Positions 51,988 to 59,452 of a stretch of DNA of 64,000 nt are shown one piece after another. Each line of letters begins with the position of its first letter. Position 1 is the stretch's first letter. Where the stretch lies: the NCBI RefSeq assembly GCF_003991155.1, contig NZ_CP031293.1; one strand, 5' to 3'. Origin of the DNA: Escherichia coli. Lineage in GTDB: Bacteria; Pseudomonadota; Gammaproteobacteria; Enterobacterales; Enterobacteriaceae. Made by a program: the position numbers and the translations under genes. The notes under the pieces are model-generated. The model did not search any database and had not been told where the DNA came from. It was given only the letters and a program-made list of their open reading frames with translations.

Positions 51988-54900
51988 GTGCGCCTGATTA
52001 TCACTTTTCTGATGGCCTGGTGCCTCAGTTGGGGGGCGTACGCCGCGACGGCCCCCGATAGCAAACAAATCTCACAAGAACTGGAGCAGGCAAAAGCGGC
52101 GAAACCCGCGCAACCGGAAGTCGTAGAGGCGCTCCAGTCTGCCTTAAATGCGCTTGAGGAACGAAAAGGTTCCCTTGAGCGCATCAAGCAATATCAAGAA
52201 GTCATTGATAATTATCCGAAACTCTCCGCTACTCTGCGCGCGCAATTAAACAACATGCGTGACGAGCCGCGCAGCGTGTCACCGGGAATGTCTACCGACG
52301 CGCTGAATCAGGAAATTCTCCAGGTCAGCAGCCAGTTGCTGGATAAAAGCCGTCAGGCCCAGCAAGAGCAGGAACGCGCCCGCGAGATTGCCGATTCGCT
52401 GAATCAACTGCCGCAACAGCAAACCGATGCCCGCCGTCAGTTAAATGAAATCGAGCGCCGCCTGGGGACGCTTACCGGCAATTCCCCGCTCAATCAGGCA
52501 CAAAATTTCGCGTTGCAGTCTGACTCCGCACGCCTGAAAGCGCTCGTCGATGAACTGGAACTGGCGCAGCTGTCCGCCAATAACCGCCAGGAATTAGCGC
52601 GTTTACGCTCAGAGCTGGCGGAAAAAGAGAGCCAGCAACTGGATGCATATTTGCAGGCCTTACGTAATCAGTTGAACAGCCAACGTCAGCTTGAGGCGGA
52701 GCGGGCGCTGGAAAGTACCGAATTACTGGCAGAAAACAGTGCCGATTTGCCGAAAGATATCGTCGCGCAATTCAAAATTAACCGCGAACTATCGGCAGCG
52801 CTGAATCAACAGGCGCAGCGGATGGATCTCGTTGCCTCGCAACAGCGTCAGGCTGCCAGCCAGACGTTACAGGTCCGGCAGGCGTTGAATACGCTGCGTG
52901 AACAGTCGCAATGGCTGGGCTCGTCCAACCTGCTCGGCGAAGCGTTGCGGGCGCAGGTGGCACGGCTGCCGGAAATGCCAAAACCACAACAACTTGATAC
53001 CGAAATGGCGCAGTTGCGTGTGCAACGGTTACGTTATGAGGATCTGCTTAATAAACAGCCGCAGCTAAGGCAAATTCATCAGGCCGACGGTCAGCCGCTG
53101 ACCGCCGAGCAAAACCGTATTCTGGAAGCACAGCTACGCACTCAGCGTGAGTTGCTGAACTCATTGTTGCAGGGTGGAGACACGCTACTGCTGGAACTGA
53201 CCAAGCTGAAAGTCTCCAACGGGCAACTGGAGGATGCGCTGAAAGAGGTGAATGAAGCGACGCACCGCTATCTGTTCTGGACCTCTGACGTGCGCCCAAT
53301 GACCATCGCCTGGCCGCTGGAAATCGCCCAGGATCTGCGTCGTCTCATTTCGCTGGACACCTTCAGTCAGTTGGGCAAAGCCAGTGTGATGATGCTGACC
53401 AGTAAAGAGACAATTTTACCGCTGTTTGGCGCGTTGATTCTGGTCGGTTGCAGTATTTACTCACGCCGCTATTTCACCCGTTTTCTTGAACGTTCGGCGG
53501 CGAAAGTCGGCAAAGTGACTCAGGATCACTTCTGGCTGACGTTACGCACTCTTTTCTGGTCGATTCTCGTCGCGTCACCGCTACCGGTGCTGTGGATGAC
53601 GCTGGGTTACGGCTTGCGCGAGGCGTGGCCTTATCCGCTGGCGGTAGCGATTGGTGATGGCGTAACAGCCACCGTACCGCTGCTATGGGTAGTGATGATT
53701 TGCGCTACCTTTGCCCGCCCGAACGGCTTATTTATCGCTCATTTTGGCTGGCCGCGCGAACGGGTTTCCCGTGGGATGCGCTACTACCTGATGAGCATTG
53801 GGCTTATCGTGCCGCTGATTATGGCGCTGATGATGTTCGATAATCTCGACGACCGCGAGTTTTCCGGTTCGCTGGGACGGCTTTGCTTTATCCTCATTTG
53901 CGGTGCGCTGGCGGTGGTCACTCTCAGTCTGAAAAAGGCCGGGATCCCGCTGTATCTCAACAAAGAAGGCAGCGGTGACAACATTACCAACCATATGCTG
54001 TGGAACATGATGATTGGCGCACCGCTGGTTGCCATTCTGGCGTCGGCGGTGGGTTATCTGGCAACGGCGCAGGCACTGTTAGCGAGGCTTGAAACCTCGG
54101 TTGCCATCTGGTTCCTGCTACTAGTGGTTTATCACGTTATCCGCCGCTGGATGCTGATCCAGCGCCGCAGGCTGGCGTTTGACCGGGCGAAGCATCGCCG
54201 GGCAGAGATGTTAGCGCAACGTGCGCGTGGCGAAGAGGAAGCGCATCATCACAGTAGCCCGGAAGGGGCAATTGAAGTAGATGAAAGCGAAGTCGATCTC
54301 GATGCCATCAGTGCGCAATCCTTGCGGCTGGTGCGCTCAATTTTGATGTTGATCGCCCTGCTTTCGGTCATTGTGCTGTGGTCAGAAATCCATTCCGCTT
54401 TCGGCTTCCTCGAAAATATTTCGCTGTGGGATGTCACCTCCACGGTACAGGGCGTAGAAAGTCTGGAGCCGATTACCCTCGGTGCGGTGCTGATTGCCAT
54501 TCTGGTGTTTATCATCACCACGCAGCTGGTGCGCAACCTGCCCGCGCTGCTGGAACTGGCGATTTTGCAGCACCTGGATTTAACGCCGGGTACGGGCTAC
54601 GCCATCACCACCATCACCAAATATCTGCTGATGCTGATTGGCGGGCTGGTCGGCTTCTCAATGATTGGTATTGAGTGGTCGAAATTGCAGTGGCTGGTCG
54701 CCGCGCTCGGTGTTGGTCTCGGTTTTGGTTTGCAGGAAATTTTCGCCAACTTTATCTCTGGCCTGATCATCCTGTTCGAAAAACCGATTCGCATTGGCGA
54801 TACGGTAACGATCCGCGATCTTACTGGTAGCGTGACGAAAATTAACACCCGCGCCACCACCATCAGCGACTGGGACCGTAAAGAGATAATCGTGCCGAAC

Positions 54901-55311
54901 AAGGCGTTTATTACCGAGCAGTTTATCAACTGGTCGCTCTCTGACTCGGTCACGCGCGTGGTGTTGACGATTCCGGCCCCTGCCGATGCCAACAGTGAAG
55001 AAGTGACGGAAATCCTGCTCACCGCAGCGCGTCGCTGCTCGCTGGTGATCGACAACCCGGCACCGGAAGTCTTCCTGGTGGATCTGCAACAGGGGATTCA
55101 GATTTTCGAGCTGCGTATTTACGCCGCTGAGATGGGTCACCGTATGCCGCTACGCCATGAGATCCACCAGCTAATTCTGGCAGGCTTCCATGCCCACGGT
55201 ATCGATATGCCATTCCCGCCCTTCCAGATGCGTCTGGAAAGCCTCAACGGTAAACAAACGGGGAGAACGCTGACGTCTGCGGGCAAAGGTCGTCAGGCGG
55301 GAAGTTTATAA
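51988..55311 (+). CDS. mscM: Miniconductance mechanosensitive channel MscM (YjeP; MscS family with large periplasmic coiled-coil domain)
   Basis: 1107-aa ORF; signal peptide, Gln-rich coiled-coil N-terminal domain, multiple TM segments and C-terminal MscS domain. Confidence 0.9.
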   Translation: MRLIITFLMAWCLSWGAYAATAPDSKQISQELEQAKAAKPAQPEVVEALQSALNALEERKGSLERIKQYQEVIDNYPKLSATLRAQLNNMRDEPRSVSPGMSTDALNQEILQVSSQLLDKSRQAQQEQERAREIADSLNQLPQQQTDARRQLNEIERRLGTLTGNSPLNQAQNFALQSDSARLKALVDELELAQLSANNRQELARLRSELAEKESQQLDAYLQALRNQLNSQRQLEAERALESTELLAENSADLPKDIVAQFKINRELSAALNQQAQRMDLVASQQRQAASQTLQVRQALNTLREQSQWLGSSNLLGEALRAQVARLPEMPKPQQLDTEMAQLRVQRLRYEDLLNKQPQLRQIHQADGQPLTAEQNRILEAQLRTQRELLNSLLQGGDTLLLELTKLKVSNGQLEDALKEVNEATHRYLFWTSDVRPMTIAWPLEIAQDLRRLISLDTFSQLGKASVMMLTSKETILPLFGALILVGCSIYSRRYFTRFLERSAAKVGKVTQDHFWLTLRTLFWSILVASPLPVLWMTLGYGLREAWPYPLAVAIGDGVTATVPLLWVVMICATFARPNGLFIAHFGWPRERVSRGMRYYLMSIGLIVPLIMALMMFDNLDDREFSGSLGRLCFILICGALAVVTLSLKKAGIPLYLNKEGSGDNITNHMLWNMMIGAPLVAILASAVGYLATAQALLARLETSVAIWFLLLVVYHVIRRWMLIQRRRLAFDRAKHRRAEMLAQRARGEEEAHHHSSPEGAIEVDESEVDLDAISAQSLRLVRSILMLIALLSVIVLWSEIHSAFGFLENISLWDVTSTVQGVESLEPITLGAVLIAILVFIITTQLVRNLPALLELAILQHLDLTPGTGYAITTITKYLLMLIGGLVGFSMIGIEWSKLQWLVAALGVGLGFGLQEIFANFISGLIILFEKPIRIGDTVTIRDLTGSVTKINTRATTISDWDRKEIIVPNKAFITEQFINWSLSDSVTRVVLTIPAPADANSEEVTEILLTAARRCSLVIDNPAPEVFLVDLQQGIQIFELRIYAAEMGHRMPLRHEIHQLILAGFHAHGIDMPFPPFQMRLESLNGKQTGRTLTSAGKGRQAGSL

Positions 55312-55660
55312 GGTTTTGTAGCCGGATAGTCTCATCCGGCTCACCAACAAAACAGATAGCGCAGGGAAAACTGCCACAGCCAATAGAAGAGCATTATTGA
55401 AATAACAAAATATTGCCAAAGAGAGTGCTGTTTCTTCCAAATAACAGCATAAATATATGGGATGAATAATGGTAAGGTCATTATAATACCAACTGGGCGA
55501 ATATCATCATTCTCAAGATATGTCATAACATCACAAACATTATTAATTCCTCTACCGTCGATAAACCACTCTTTGTCTTGAACAGATAAAAAATCTATCC
55601 AAAATATGCTTATAACAAACCAGATAAGGTTAAGGGAAAATGATTTCCAGTTCATCATAG
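55240..55660. repeat. Segmental duplication copy A (mscM 3' end + terminator hairpin + yjeO)
   Basis: DNA-level similarity to 57440..57852 read directly (e.g. acggtaaacaaacggggagaacgctgacgtctgcggg versus acggtaagcaaacggggtgaacgctgacctctgcggc; shared aaggttttgtagc.ggat.gtctcatccggc hairpin). Boundaries approximate. Confidence 0.6.
55341..55658 (-). CDS. yjeO: Small inner membrane protein, YjeN/YjeO paralog family (copy adjacent to mscM)
   Basis: 105-aa ORF with 2-3 TM segments; paralogous to the ORF at 57538..57852 (conserved DKEW, YLENDD, IMTLPLF, YWLWQF, LRY.FC blocks); start overlaps the upstream 237-aa gene (ATGA). yjeO versus yjeN assignment is from K-12 gene order (memory). Confidence 0.7.
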   Translation of the reverse strand: MMNWKSFSLNLIWFVISIFWIDFLSVQDKEWFIDGRGINNVCDVMTYLENDDIRPVGIIMTLPLFIPYIYAVIWKKQHSLWQYFVISIMLFYWLWQFSLRYLFCW

Positions 55661-56368
55661 ATTATTCATTATTTTCATTAAAGCAGTTTTCTTTTCAAGA
55701 ATACGTCGACCATATTCACTGTATTCTCTCTGATGGGATCCTTTCGGTGCTGCAATGGAGTCTATAATATCTTGTTTATTTCTTTCAATACCACGGTTGT
55801 ATCGGGAGCCGACTACAATTAACTGCTCATCCGTTAAATTAGTGGTGTCACCTATTTCCGGATAGTCATAATGTATAAGGTCTCGTAAATGAAATGCTAC
55901 CACTCTAATGTTGAAGCGGTCATTTAGTAAGCACTGGGAAAGTTGGAACTGCTCAAAGGATGACAAAAGATCTGGATGTATCCCTATAGTCCTGGCTGCA
56001 ACGCCTAACTGTATTGCGACAGAACCGACTGAAGTAGAGTTTGAGTAGGTATTGCCTCCTCTCTTTGAAACGGCCTCTAGGATTATTTTTAATTGCAGCA
56101 CCCCCACTGGTTTAAATCTTTCTGGCATTCCGCCAACCTCAGCAGCCGCAACGCCCGCAAGTAATAATAACGGGATTTGCGCCTCTTTGGCATATTGCCA
56201 CAACATATCACGGTGATAAATCAACCATGATGTTTTATATAACCATAAGTGTGCAGTCCCCGTGCTGAATGTCCAATTAGTCGGAAGAAAACGCCATCGA
56301 AAATAATCAATGCCATTCCATTTAGGAAAGCCTAATTCATCAACTTCGCAAAAAATAAGATTATTCAT
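55655..56368 (-). CDS. Hypothetical protein, 237 aa, tentative lysozyme-like (GH23/SLT-like) motifs; no signal peptide
   Basis: Intact ORF with AT-rich composition; ordered motifs AAAEVGG ... GSVAIQLG ... NIRVVAFHL ... VGSRYNRG resemble the E-S / G-L-M-Q / A-Y-N-x-G blocks of lytic transglycosylases (manual inspection only); translationally coupled to yjeO. Confidence 0.55.
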   Translation of the reverse strand: MNNLIFCEVDELGFPKWNGIDYFRWRFLPTNWTFSTGTAHLWLYKTSWLIYHRDMLWQYAKEAQIPLLLLAGVAAAEVGGMPERFKPVGVLQLKIILEAVSKRGGNTYSNSTSVGSVAIQLGVAARTIGIHPDLLSSFEQFQLSQCLLNDRFNIRVVAFHLRDLIHYDYPEIGDTTNLTDEQLIVVGSRYNRGIERNKQDIIDSIAAPKGSHQREYSEYGRRILEKKTALMKIMNNL

Positions 56369-56510: not shown

Positions 56511-56939
56511 TCAAGATGCGGGTGTGAGCACCTGAAAGTGATCGTTAATTCGGGATGTCAGAGAGTCCGCTATATCCGGCAGCGTCTGGTTAAAAAAGAC
56601 AGAAAAACGGGATACATTATATTCATGAATGGTTTTATATTCGCAGATTAGCGGTGACGTCAGTGCTTTCAGATTCAGCGCCCCCATGATATTCAGGCGT
56701 GTGCGGCAGCCTGTTGTTTTTACTGCTTTTTTCTGGCCTTTACGTATCCAGCCATAGCTGATTTTAGTGGCCTGAGTCGGATGGACTCCATCAATAAAAA
56801 GAACCGGTTCATCACCCACAGTTATTTTCAGTTCCTCATAATATTCAATGAATTGCCTTTGTTTCTCTTCACTGAATTTATGGGGGACGCCTGACGGTTT
56901 TTTGTAGGTGAAACCATTACGATGCAGCCACTTATTCAT
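56511..56939 (-). pseudogene. IS630-family transposase fragment (C-terminal part)
   Basis: 142-aa ORF MNKWLHRNGFTYKKPSGVPHKFSEEKQRQFIEYYEEL, separated by a frameshift or gap from the N-terminal fragment. Confidence 0.6.
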
Positions 56940-57031
56940 CCCCGGAATGCTGAAAATGATGTTCCATGTCCGGGTGATAAACGCAATAACATCGCGGGTA
57001 TGGTGAAATAAATTATCGGATAACTGGCTGA

Positions 57032-57328
57032 TTAAAAGGCCGTTTGTTCAGCACTGAGTTTGCTGTCTGAGCCGCCGTTTTCGGGCTTCAGTTTTCCTTT
57101 ATTCAGGAATTCGCTGATATGGTGATCAATCGTTGTCTGATGCAAGCGTAAAGCCTGAGCAATCATGGCAGAACTCCAGCCTTCGGAAACCAGAAGAATG
57201 GCTTTAATACGATCTCTGACTCGCCCGTCACGACTGGAATCATGAAGGCGTTCAAGTTCAGCTTTTTGTTGCTCAGTAATGAATATTTTCATGTTGGACA
57301 GCATGATCTTCTGTTGCTGAAAAATCAA
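57032..57328 (-). pseudogene. IS630-family transposase fragment (N-terminal HTH part)
   Basis: 98-aa ORF with HTH region; no contiguous reading frame with the downstream fragment. Confidence 0.6.
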
Positions 57329-57439: not shown

Positions 57440-57852
57440 TCAGAACGGTAAGCAAACGGGGTGAACGCTGACCTCTGCGGCTAAAGCGCGCCAGGACGGC
57501 GGTATATAAGGTTTTGTAGCAGGATGGTCTCATCCGGCTACAAACAAAACTGATAGCGCAGAAAAAACTGCCACAGCCAGTAGCCGAAAATCACAAGCGC
57601 GGTGGCATACATAAACCAGCCGCGTTTTTTTCGCCACAAAGCGAACCAGAGAAAAGGGAAAAAGAGCGGTAACGTCATTATCACACCGACATCGCGGGTA
57701 TCATCATTTTCCAGATACTCCAGCACATGGCAGATATTTTTAACCCCACCTTCATCAATCATCCACTCTTTGTCCAGCGTGGAAGTGATGACTATCTAGG
57801 GGATCGCTACAACAAACCAGATGCAGCATAAGACAAACGTGCGCGCACTCAT
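57440..57852. repeat. Segmental duplication copy B (fossil of mscM 3' end + hairpin + yjeN)
   Basis: See copy A; copy B carries about 60 bp homologous to the last codons of mscM although no mscM gene is adjacent. Boundaries approximate. Confidence 0.6.
57538..57852 (-). pseudogene. yjeN: YjeN/YjeO-family small membrane protein with in-frame TAG at codon 19 (possible pseudogene or 74-aa N-truncated product)
   Basis: Reading from ATG at 57852 gives MSARTFVLCCIWFVVAIP-stop(TAG, 57796..57798)-IVITSTLDKEWMIDEGG...; the stop aligns with a Trp in the paralog at 55341..55658; ORF track reports only the 74-aa downstream frame 57538..57762. Confidence 0.5.
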
Positions 57853-57949
57853 AAGATAACCCGTAGTTTAATTTCGCTATAGCGCATACGAAATCCCACT
57901 AATTCCCTGTCATTGCGCCCTATCGTCAGGCAGACGATAGGGCATCGGG

Positions 57950-59452
57950 TTATTCCACCGCCCACTGCGGATTTTTTGCCACTCTGCTGCAATAGTTCTG
58001 GTAAATCGCCATCGCTAACAGCGAGAAGAAGACAGGGCCGCCAATCATCCACAATGTGCTGTCCCAGTCTCCGGCTTCAACCACAGGTTGAAAGATGGTG
58101 AAGACGTTCGCAAATGTCACAACCAGTACGACAACCACCGTCGCAATCATTGCCGACATACGCGTTTTGAAAATCACAAACGGTCTGTCGAGATCCTGAC
58201 GTGCTTTAAAGAATGGGAAAGCCAGCGCGAGGAACAAGTAAGGAAGCGTCATAGACACGTTCGCCATCAGAGTCAGTTTGTTAAAGAACGCCGATGCGGT
58301 GCCACCGCCAAACGAAACCAGCAGGATGAAGACAGTAACCAGCCCGCACTGCATCCACATGGCGATAGACGGCATACCCATCGTATTCAGGCGCGTCATC
58401 GGTTCCGGCCACAATGCTTTCGGCGTTCCCTGGATGATGGCTTTCAGCGGTGAATAGCAAAGCGTAAAGAACGCACCGGTATAAGCGAGGAACATCGAAA
58501 GCCCGGTAATACGCGCAAACCATACGCCCAGCGACAATGACGCTTCTGGTGACAAATGCAGTGCGTTACCCAGCGTCACCCCGAGGCTCTTCATCAGCAC
58601 ATAGGTAATATTGCCGAGGTTAACGGAACCATTACTTAATACCTGCTGCCAGTTTGTGCTGACGCCCCATAAAAATATTGCCAGCGAATAACCGATTGAA
58701 ATAACAATAGCGGCAAAAACAATACCTTTGGCAAAGTTCTTTTCTGGATTTTCCGTTTTATCGACCAGACCACCAACCGCTTCAATTCCGCCATAGGCAA
58801 AAATAGCAAATACCACAAACGATAGCATTGCCAGACCGGACTGATAACCTGGATTCGGTGATGCAAGGAAATTAATATCCTGCGCGAAATGCCCACCATT
58901 TAATAACAAAATAGTAATGCTTACTAACAGCAATACTAAATTCAGACACATTACTGCAATACCGCCCACCGCAGTAATGCGGGCAATTTTATTAATCCCC
59001 TTTGAAGCAACGACGGTGACCAGAATCATCCATGCCACTGCCAGCAGACCAACCACCTGCGTAGGCTCCAGTCCGGCAATACGCCAGTGCTGGGTCATGT
59101 CGCTACCATAGAGGAATGTTGAGAACGGTACCCAAACTTTCGCGGAGGTACTCACCATCCAGATGATATAAGAGGAAAACCACATAAACGTACCAATGAA
59201 GGCAAAACGTGGTCCGACACTATTATTCATCCATGAATAGATACCGCCTTCTTCTTTGCGATAAGCAGCGCCCATTTCAGCCATCATTAAGGCGAATGGA
59301 ATAAAGAATAACAATGCAGAAAATATATAAAAGGGAATCGCACTATAACCCATTAAGTAATAAGCCGATGGGCTATTGGCAAATCCAAATACGGAAGTAA
59401 AGATCATCAATATGAGTCCTATCAGACTCATCTTTTTTATCGTGTGAGGCAT
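57950..59452 (-). CDS. yjeM: APC-family amino acid transporter YjeM
   Basis: ORF 530 aa; start set at MPHTIKKMSLIGLILMIFTSVFGF (500 aa); polytopic membrane protein. Confidence 0.88.
   Translation of the reverse strand: MPHTIKKMSLIGLILMIFTSVFGFANSPSAYYLMGYSAIPFYIFSALLFFIPFALMMAEMGAAYRKEEGGIYSWMNNSVGPRFAFIGTFMWFSSYIIWMVSTSAKVWVPFSTFLYGSDMTQHWRIAGLEPTQVVGLLAVAWMILVTVVASKGINKIARITAVGGIAVMCLNLVLLLVSITILLLNGGHFAQDINFLASPNPGYQSGLAMLSFVVFAIFAYGGIEAVGGLVDKTENPEKNFAKGIVFAAIVISIGYSLAIFLWGVSTNWQQVLSNGSVNLGNITYVLMKSLGVTLGNALHLSPEASLSLGVWFARITGLSMFLAYTGAFFTLCYSPLKAIIQGTPKALWPEPMTRLNTMGMPSIAMWMQCGLVTVFILLVSFGGGTASAFFNKLTLMANVSMTLPYLFLALAFPFFKARQDLDRPFVIFKTRMSAMIATVVVVLVVTFANVFTIFQPVVEAGDWDSTLWMIGGPVFFSLLAMAIYQNYCSRVAKNPQWAVE

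Follow-up and report, generated by a model that had tools for sequence, protein, structure and literature searches.

The window analysed here is a stretch of 64,000 nucleotides of Escherichia coli DNA (RefSeq assembly GCF_003991155.1, contig NZ_CP031293.1) with 100% identity to strain 2016C-3878, and the feature under study is its copy of yjeO, a small minus-strand gene lying between yjeM and mscM. A position between yjeM (or epmA) and mscM is the one expected for the YjeO family in Enterobacteriaceae. In the window, the reading frame of yjeO is interrupted by an amber codon, and between the gene and mscM lies an insert of about 2.2 kb, which carries a second gene of the same family together with a gene for a protein of 237 amino acids. 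Coordinates are collected in Table 1.

The frame that opens with the ATG at 57852 reads MSARTFVLCCIWFVVAIP and then meets TAG at 57796-57798, which is codon 19 of a frame of 104 codons. Beyond this TAG, 85 sense codons follow before the terminal TAG at 57538-57540. The original prediction had described this in-frame stop and a TGG at the matching codon of the neighbouring paralogue, and both were found as described. Membership in Pfam families was judged by the gathering score, which for DUF2645 has a cut-off of 25 bits. With Trp19 restored, the product of yjeO matched DUF2645 (PF10840) over residues 6-103 (E = 5e-39, 133.3 bits), so the sequence on both sides of the TAG belongs to one conserved gene and is not a chance open reading frame (ORF). 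The 74-amino-acid remainder of yjeO reached 102.3 bits against the same family.

All full-length relatives are 100-108 amino acids long. An uninterrupted frame of about 100-108 amino acids with three hydrophobic segments is absent from yjeO of the clone to which the window belongs. The same allele carries a second difference upstream of the amber codon, at codon 5 (57838-57840), where ATG is replaced by ACG (Met5 to Thr); this change abolishes the alternative start used in some annotations for 100-amino-acid forms of YjeO.

The gene showed 89.8% nucleotide identity to yjeO of K-12 and 98.7% to the closest intact allele, the 104-amino-acid allele of VCSW7 (WP_001276182.1). K-12 yjeN (b4157), in contrast, reached only about 35% nucleotide identity when forced into alignment, and the two proteins did not align. 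It was therefore evident that the finding concerns yjeO, and that YjeN and YjeO are not paralogues; identification of the gene as yjeN was rejected, and the body common to YjeN and YjeO of the initial description does not exist.

The gene order in K-12 is yjeM-yjeN-yjeO-mscM, with a YjeO of 104 amino acids, and the start of yjeO overlaps the stop of yjeN (ATGA), an arrangement that suggests translational coupling. The copy in the clone shares with K-12 yjeO (b4158) its position between yjeM and mscM, its length of 104 codons and its Pfam family. It differs in carrying the two changes described above and in being preceded by only a 45-nt tail of yjeN. Across E. coli, the interval between yjeM and mscM was found in at least five configurations: empty, with yjeO, with yjeN and yjeO, with yjeO and the island, and with yjeN, yjeO and the island.

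Table 1. Features of the yjeM-mscM interval and its surroundings (positions are those of the window).
Feature	Position	Strand	Basis or remark
yjeO orthologue (DUF2645 / YjeO family), 104 codons, amber codon 19, also Met5 to Thr	57538..57852	-	Pfam, alignment
TAG in place of ancestral TGG (Trp19)	57796..57798	-	allele alignment; ancestral CCTGG Dcm site 57796-57800
Residual 74-codon ORF from internal ATG, RefSeq "YjeO family protein" WP_000564601.1	57538..57762	-	ORF list, RefSeq
Last 45 nt of yjeN, including ATGA overlap with yjeO start; remainder of yjeN gone	57849..57893	-	alignment with K-12 yjeN 3' end
yjeM, intact, left-hand anchor of the locus	57950..59452	-	annotation
epmA	beyond yjeM	-	annotation
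Repeat copy A: yjeO 3' end, intergenic spacer, remnant of mscM 3' end	57444..57583	-	97% to same element in Escherichia sp. E13S3
Remnant of mscM 3' end	57444-57537		remnant
IS630-family transposase pseudogene, frameshifted	56511..57304	-	Pfam, annotation
237-amino-acid protein, GH23 lysozyme / lytic transglycosylase-like fold (structure model), no signal peptide; upstream partner of DUF2645 genes	55655..56368	-	
Second, intact DUF2645 gene, overlapping the end of the 237-amino-acid gene	55341..55655 (also given as ending 55658)	-	
Repeat copy B: island DUF2645 3' end, spacer, true mscM 3' end	55246..55386	-	85% to copy A
mscM, intact, right-hand anchor of the locus	51988..55311	+	annotation

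The direction of the change at codon 19 was clear. The codon is TGG in VCSW7, ECA64, GF3-3, Escherichia sp. E13S3, K-12, SCU-387, E. albertii and the paralogue within the window, while Salmonella homologues carry Leu at this position. TGG is therefore the ancestral state, and among the alleles compared TAG was confined to a clone of 41 genomes. The comparison with the orthologous codon of other strains, which had been proposed as a check, thus returned TGG in all Escherichia orthologues examined, and the cause is, as had been proposed, a single G-to-A change of the Trp codon.

Where VCSW7, ECA64, GF3-3 and E13S3 read ATCCCCTGGATA, the window reads ATCCCCTAGATA. In the four nearest intact alleles, codons 18-19 are CCC TGG and thereby create CCTGG, the sole Dcm (CCWGG) site in the gene. 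Alleles of the K-12 type have no CCTGG at these codons, and yjeO of the clone belongs to the allele group with the Dcm site, distinct from that of K-12. The mutated base is 57797, where G was replaced by A on the minus strand (C by T on the plus strand), converting CCTGG to CCTAG. The altered position is paired, on the opposite strand, with the inner cytosine of CCAGG, the methylation target of Dcm.

Deamination of 5-methylcytosine at Dcm sites is a classic source of amber hotspots, and Coulondre, Miller, Farabaugh and Gilbert reportedly described such hotspots at Dcm (CCWGG) sites of lacI in 1978. In yjeO, a 5-methylcytosine on the plus strand (57797) would have been deaminated, giving CCTAG in place of CCTGG and an amber codon in place of Trp19; the Dcm context is observed, and from it we infer the mechanism. 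The likeness to the lacI hotspots extends to the same conversion of CCTGG to CCTAG, with a C-to-T change at the inner cytosine of the complementary CCAGG and the creation of TAG. The difference is that the yjeO case, at a putatively methylated site, is an allele fixed naturally in a wild clone and not part of a laboratory spectrum. It would thus represent a textbook mutational hotspot acting in nature. Gene conversion from the paralogue was considered as a source of the TAG and rejected, as the paralogue reads TGG here and shares only about 58% nucleotide identity with yjeO outside the last 46 nt.

The distribution of the allele was determined in a set of 5426 complete E. coli genomes from RefSeq. 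The amber allele was present in 41 of them, 39 with 100% identity over 601 nt, and in addition SX4 and SX48, which carry the allele plus an extra IS3 insertion sequence (IS). The 39 identical carriers originated from humans, cattle, poultry, pigs, dogs, wastewater and rivers on several continents and were sequenced in many laboratories. All 41 carriers were 100% identical over the 6-kb frd-epmA-yjeM flank, whereas the next-best genome reached 99.5%, so they represent one clone. Three carriers (MRY15-117, MRY15-131 and CREC-544) have been published as sequence type (ST) 457. The TAG together with the island provides a simple marker of the clone, corresponding to ST457 for these three typed strains.

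The consequence for the protein was evaluated from hydropathy and family conservation. YjeO has three hydrophobic segments (residues 5-25, 57-73 and 79-98), and codon 19 lies inside the first and strongest of them. Translation from the ATG at 57852 would yield 18 residues and break off midway through the first of three membrane helices. The first start codon past the amber codon is the ATG at 57762 (Met31), located 33 nt downstream, which opens an ORF of 74 amino acids. Between the amber codon and Met31 lie D27, K28, E29 and W30, all invariant in an alignment of 15 family sequences, and a product starting at Met31 contains neither helix 1 nor these four residues.

Predicted pairing with the anti-Shine-Dalgarno sequence at the ATG at 57762 amounted to -3.0 kcal/mol, compared with a window-wide background mean of -2.8 and with -3.2 kcal/mol at the annotated start. 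Neither start was distinct from the background, so the scan cannot discriminate between them, and pairing at background level gives no support for an efficient restart. Re-initiation at 57762 would be inefficient, and the resulting 74-amino-acid product would be short of helix 1 and of the DKEW motif. Since the stop falls inside helix 1, restart appears inefficient, and both the helix and the invariant motif would be lost, the amber yjeO is most likely a null or, at best, a weak allele.

The original prediction had left a choice between a pseudogene and a 74-amino-acid form made from the internal ATG. These proved to be the right alternatives, and the shorter form is indeed annotated in RefSeq, but it is the less favoured of the two. 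A shortened gene whose product, made by re-initiation at 57762, keeps some or all of the function appears unlikely. It would draw on an intact ORF, a RefSeq coding sequence that matches DUF2645 with 102 bits, and on a restart codon only 33 nt past the amber codon. It would also draw on the island paralogue of SX4 and SX48, in which a separate TGG-to-TGA change at the homologous Trp (a coincidence with a chance of about 4-7%) could be a hint that the protein tolerates the absence of helix 1. The Shine-Dalgarno signal that does not rise above background and the missing helix and invariant residues speak against it. No full-length natural family member begins at the position of the ATG at 57762, and the island paralogue has no Met equivalent to Met31. 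In SX4 and SX48, furthermore, the internal ATG is the exact insertion point of an IS3-family element, which is accompanied by a duplication of 5 bp (GGATG, 57760-57764) and cuts the 74-amino-acid ORF from its upstream sequence. The suggestion that the reference protein naturally starts downstream fails as well, as K-12 YjeO has 104 amino acids and both the Pfam model and the full-length homologues include helix 1.

Loss of yjeO is not unusual in E. coli. A sensitive blastn search found a yjeO match in 3029 of the 5426 complete genomes, so the gene is absent from 44% of them, and in the O157:H7 strain TR01 yjeM directly adjoins mscM with nothing between. In GF3-3, yjeO is frameshifted independently of the clone's amber codon. 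Many public yjeO products, including some from complete genomes, have frameshifted tails beginning at or near an A7 tract at codons 74-77. The gene is thus an accessory and dispensable one. The only functional note found was that yjeO was induced 2.6-fold in a dataset on sigma-E envelope stress. The A7 run itself (CGA AAA AAA CGC, about 57622-57633 in the window) is an apparent frameshift hotspot, although some of the frameshifts there may be homopolymer sequencing errors.

Taken from the sequence evidence, the TAG is a genuine nonsense mutation, inherited within one E. coli clone and located at a Dcm site, and it has very probably inactivated yjeO, a dispensable gene. The null allele would have persisted because yjeO is dispensable, and would have reached fixation in the clone by hitch-hiking. 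Considered alone, the amber codon is a minor matter, a further case of an accessory gene turned pseudogene in a particular lineage.

Several observations weigh against inactivation or against the single-clone assignment. Bacteria are known to re-initiate translation past a nearby stop, and some 74-amino-acid product is possible. The RefSeq annotation pipeline (PGAP) lists the 74-amino-acid ORF as a protein (WP_000564601.1) with no pseudogene flag, and this ORF, as given above, still matches DUF2645. The gene is also invariant across the 41 carriers, so that the remaining 74 codons show no polymorphism by which relaxed selection would be recognised. Finally, LWY24, a carrier (NZ_CP054556.1), was published as ST93 by MLST (multilocus sequence typing) based on the polymerase chain reaction (PMC8025056), yet over the 6.6 kb compared its chromosome shows 100% identity to the ST457 strains, and there may be an inconsistency in either the typing or the record. 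The PGAP call probably overstates a broken gene. By propagating the 74-amino-acid remnant as a normal protein, RefSeq causes a broken yjeO to be scored as intact in pan-genome tables.

The island beside yjeO was examined in the same genome set. The 237-amino-acid gene and the second DUF2645 gene occurred together in 44 of the 5426 complete genomes, namely in the 41-genome clone, VCSW5/7 and GF3-3, and the island was also present in Escherichia sp. E13S3. The insert is flanked by an imperfect direct repeat of 141 nt (57583-57444 against 55386-55246, 85% identity), and a frameshifted IS630 transposase lies between the two copies. The repeat fits acquisition of the island by recombination at the junction of a DUF2645 gene and mscM.

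Decay of the island was observed in sublineages. In ECOD1, an IS1 interrupts the 237-amino-acid gene, and SX4 and SX48 have a nonsense codon in the island DUF2645 gene. The latter is codon 19 (window 55599), changed from TGG to TGA at the Trp homologous to Trp19 of yjeO, and RefSeq calls there an ORF of 85 amino acids starting at ATA. That the same Trp codon was hit in the paralogue is probably a coincidence.

It had also been suggested that the loss of yjeO and the insertion may be functionally linked. This stands insofar as a conserved partner of DUF2645 genes is indeed present on the island, but the link itself is not shown. Loss of yjeO favoured, or made neutral, specifically by the second DUF2645 gene and its partner, whether through redundancy or incompatibility, is improbable. 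The conserved character of the gene pair is in keeping with such an effect, as is the state of yjeO in the four island-bearing lineages, being broken in two of them (the clone and GF3-3) by different mutations. However, VCSW5/7 and E13S3 carry the island beside an intact yjeO, which demonstrates that the insertion does not require yjeO loss, and a sample of four lineages is too small to show a link. In addition, when counted irrespective of the island, yjeO is missing from 44% of genomes and its frameshifted variants are frequent in public assemblies, and the island is itself decaying in sublineages (the SX4 DUF2645 stop and the ECOD1 IS1). Redundancy is not evident between yjeO and the island paralogue, which are only about 50% identical at the amino acid level.

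Two further explanations concern the amber codon itself. Full-length YjeO made by read-through or by an amber suppressor is very unlikely: UAG is naturally read through at a low level in E. coli, but this basal level would yield only trace protein, natural isolates seldom carry amber suppressors, and a tRNA scan of the 64-kb window found three tRNA-Gly genes and no suppressor tRNA. A sequencing or assembly error, the circumstance in which the original prediction would have fallen, has practically no chance of being the cause and is excluded by the allele being shared by the 41 complete genomes (39 independently assembled ones identical in sequence, plus SX4 and SX48) and by the exact 74-amino-acid product occurring on 532 contigs of public assemblies.

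The 237-amino-acid protein of the island belongs to a family that is spread through Enterobacterales and was also found in one betaproteobacterium, Advenella. Its neighbourhood was compared at 15 loci from 10 genera (Cronobacter, Citrobacter, Enterobacter, Dickeya, Pectobacterium, Brenneria, Xenorhabdus, Photorhabdus, Advenella and Escherichia). At all 15 loci, a DUF2645 gene lies directly downstream of the 237-amino-acid gene in the same orientation, with a gap or overlap of at most 10 nt. In Cronobacter, Citrobacter and Enterobacter, the pair is located between epmA or yjeM and mscM, that is, at the site of yjeO in E. coli. An orphan hcp gene adjoins the pair in Dickeya, Pectobacterium, Xenorhabdus and Brenneria; the pair has no such neighbour in Cronobacter, Citrobacter, Enterobacter, Photorhabdus, Advenella or Escherichia.

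Database searches gave little for these proteins. Pfam returned no match for the 237-amino-acid protein or YjeN, and NCBIfam contained no family for YjeO, its 74-amino-acid form, YjeN or the 237-amino-acid protein. A profile of the 237-amino-acid family yielded only chance matches to PDB sequences, and for this reason the fold was assigned through a structure model. The AlphaFold model, built with 41 homologues, had a mean predicted local distance difference test (pLDDT) score of 89, and Foldseek pointed, with weak E-values, to a fold like that of lysozymes and lytic transglycosylases of glycoside hydrolase family 23 (GH23). The family has an invariant Glu77 at a helix end and an invariant YNRG motif, and the protein has no hydrophobic N-terminus and no signal peptide.

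The conserved pairing and the hcp adjacency, as guilt by association, together with the modelled fold, suggest that the 237-amino-acid protein is a type VI peptidoglycan-hydrolase effector, that DUF2645 is its immunity protein and that yjeO is an orphan immunity gene. As a wider proposal, put forward tentatively as a real possibility, DUF2645/YjeO proteins may be membrane-embedded immunity proteins for undescribed Hcp-linked, GH23-like type VI secretion system (T6SS) effectors. In that proposal, yjeO would be an orphan at the yjeM-mscM site, and the clone would have regained the pair while its orphan decayed through the amber mutation at the Dcm hotspot. A holin-like or other accessory role of DUF2645 instead of immunity is possible. 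In the literature searched, with subscription journals outside it, no mention of DUF2645 was found and no link between yjeO and type VI secretion, though one paper holds both terms.

On this reading, two uncharacterised families would gain a function open to testing: DUF2645/YjeO, to which a y-gene of K-12 belongs, and the 237-amino-acid family, which has no Pfam model. The putative effector-immunity pair is the part worth following; the amber codon itself, an ordinary lineage-fixed mutation, is of low interest.

When compared with known systems, the pair showed no detectable sequence similarity to Tse3-Tsi3 (Tge1-Tgi1), a T6SS muramidase effector of Pseudomonas aeruginosa with its immunity protein. 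The putative pair also differs in that DUF2645 is a three-helix membrane protein, whereas immunity proteins of the Tsi3 type are soluble periplasmic proteins or lipoproteins. Orphan immunity genes without a toxin are known for T6SS, contact-dependent inhibition (CDI) and Rhs systems. The likeness of yjeO to these lies in most E. coli having yjeO without the 237-amino-acid partner, while the full pair occupies the same locus in Citrobacter, Enterobacter and Cronobacter. The difference is that the immunity role of DUF2645 is putative, and that in K-12 the upstream position is filled by yjeN. YjeN proved unrelated to the profile of the 237-amino-acid family, and the possibility that yjeN is a degraded effector was rejected.
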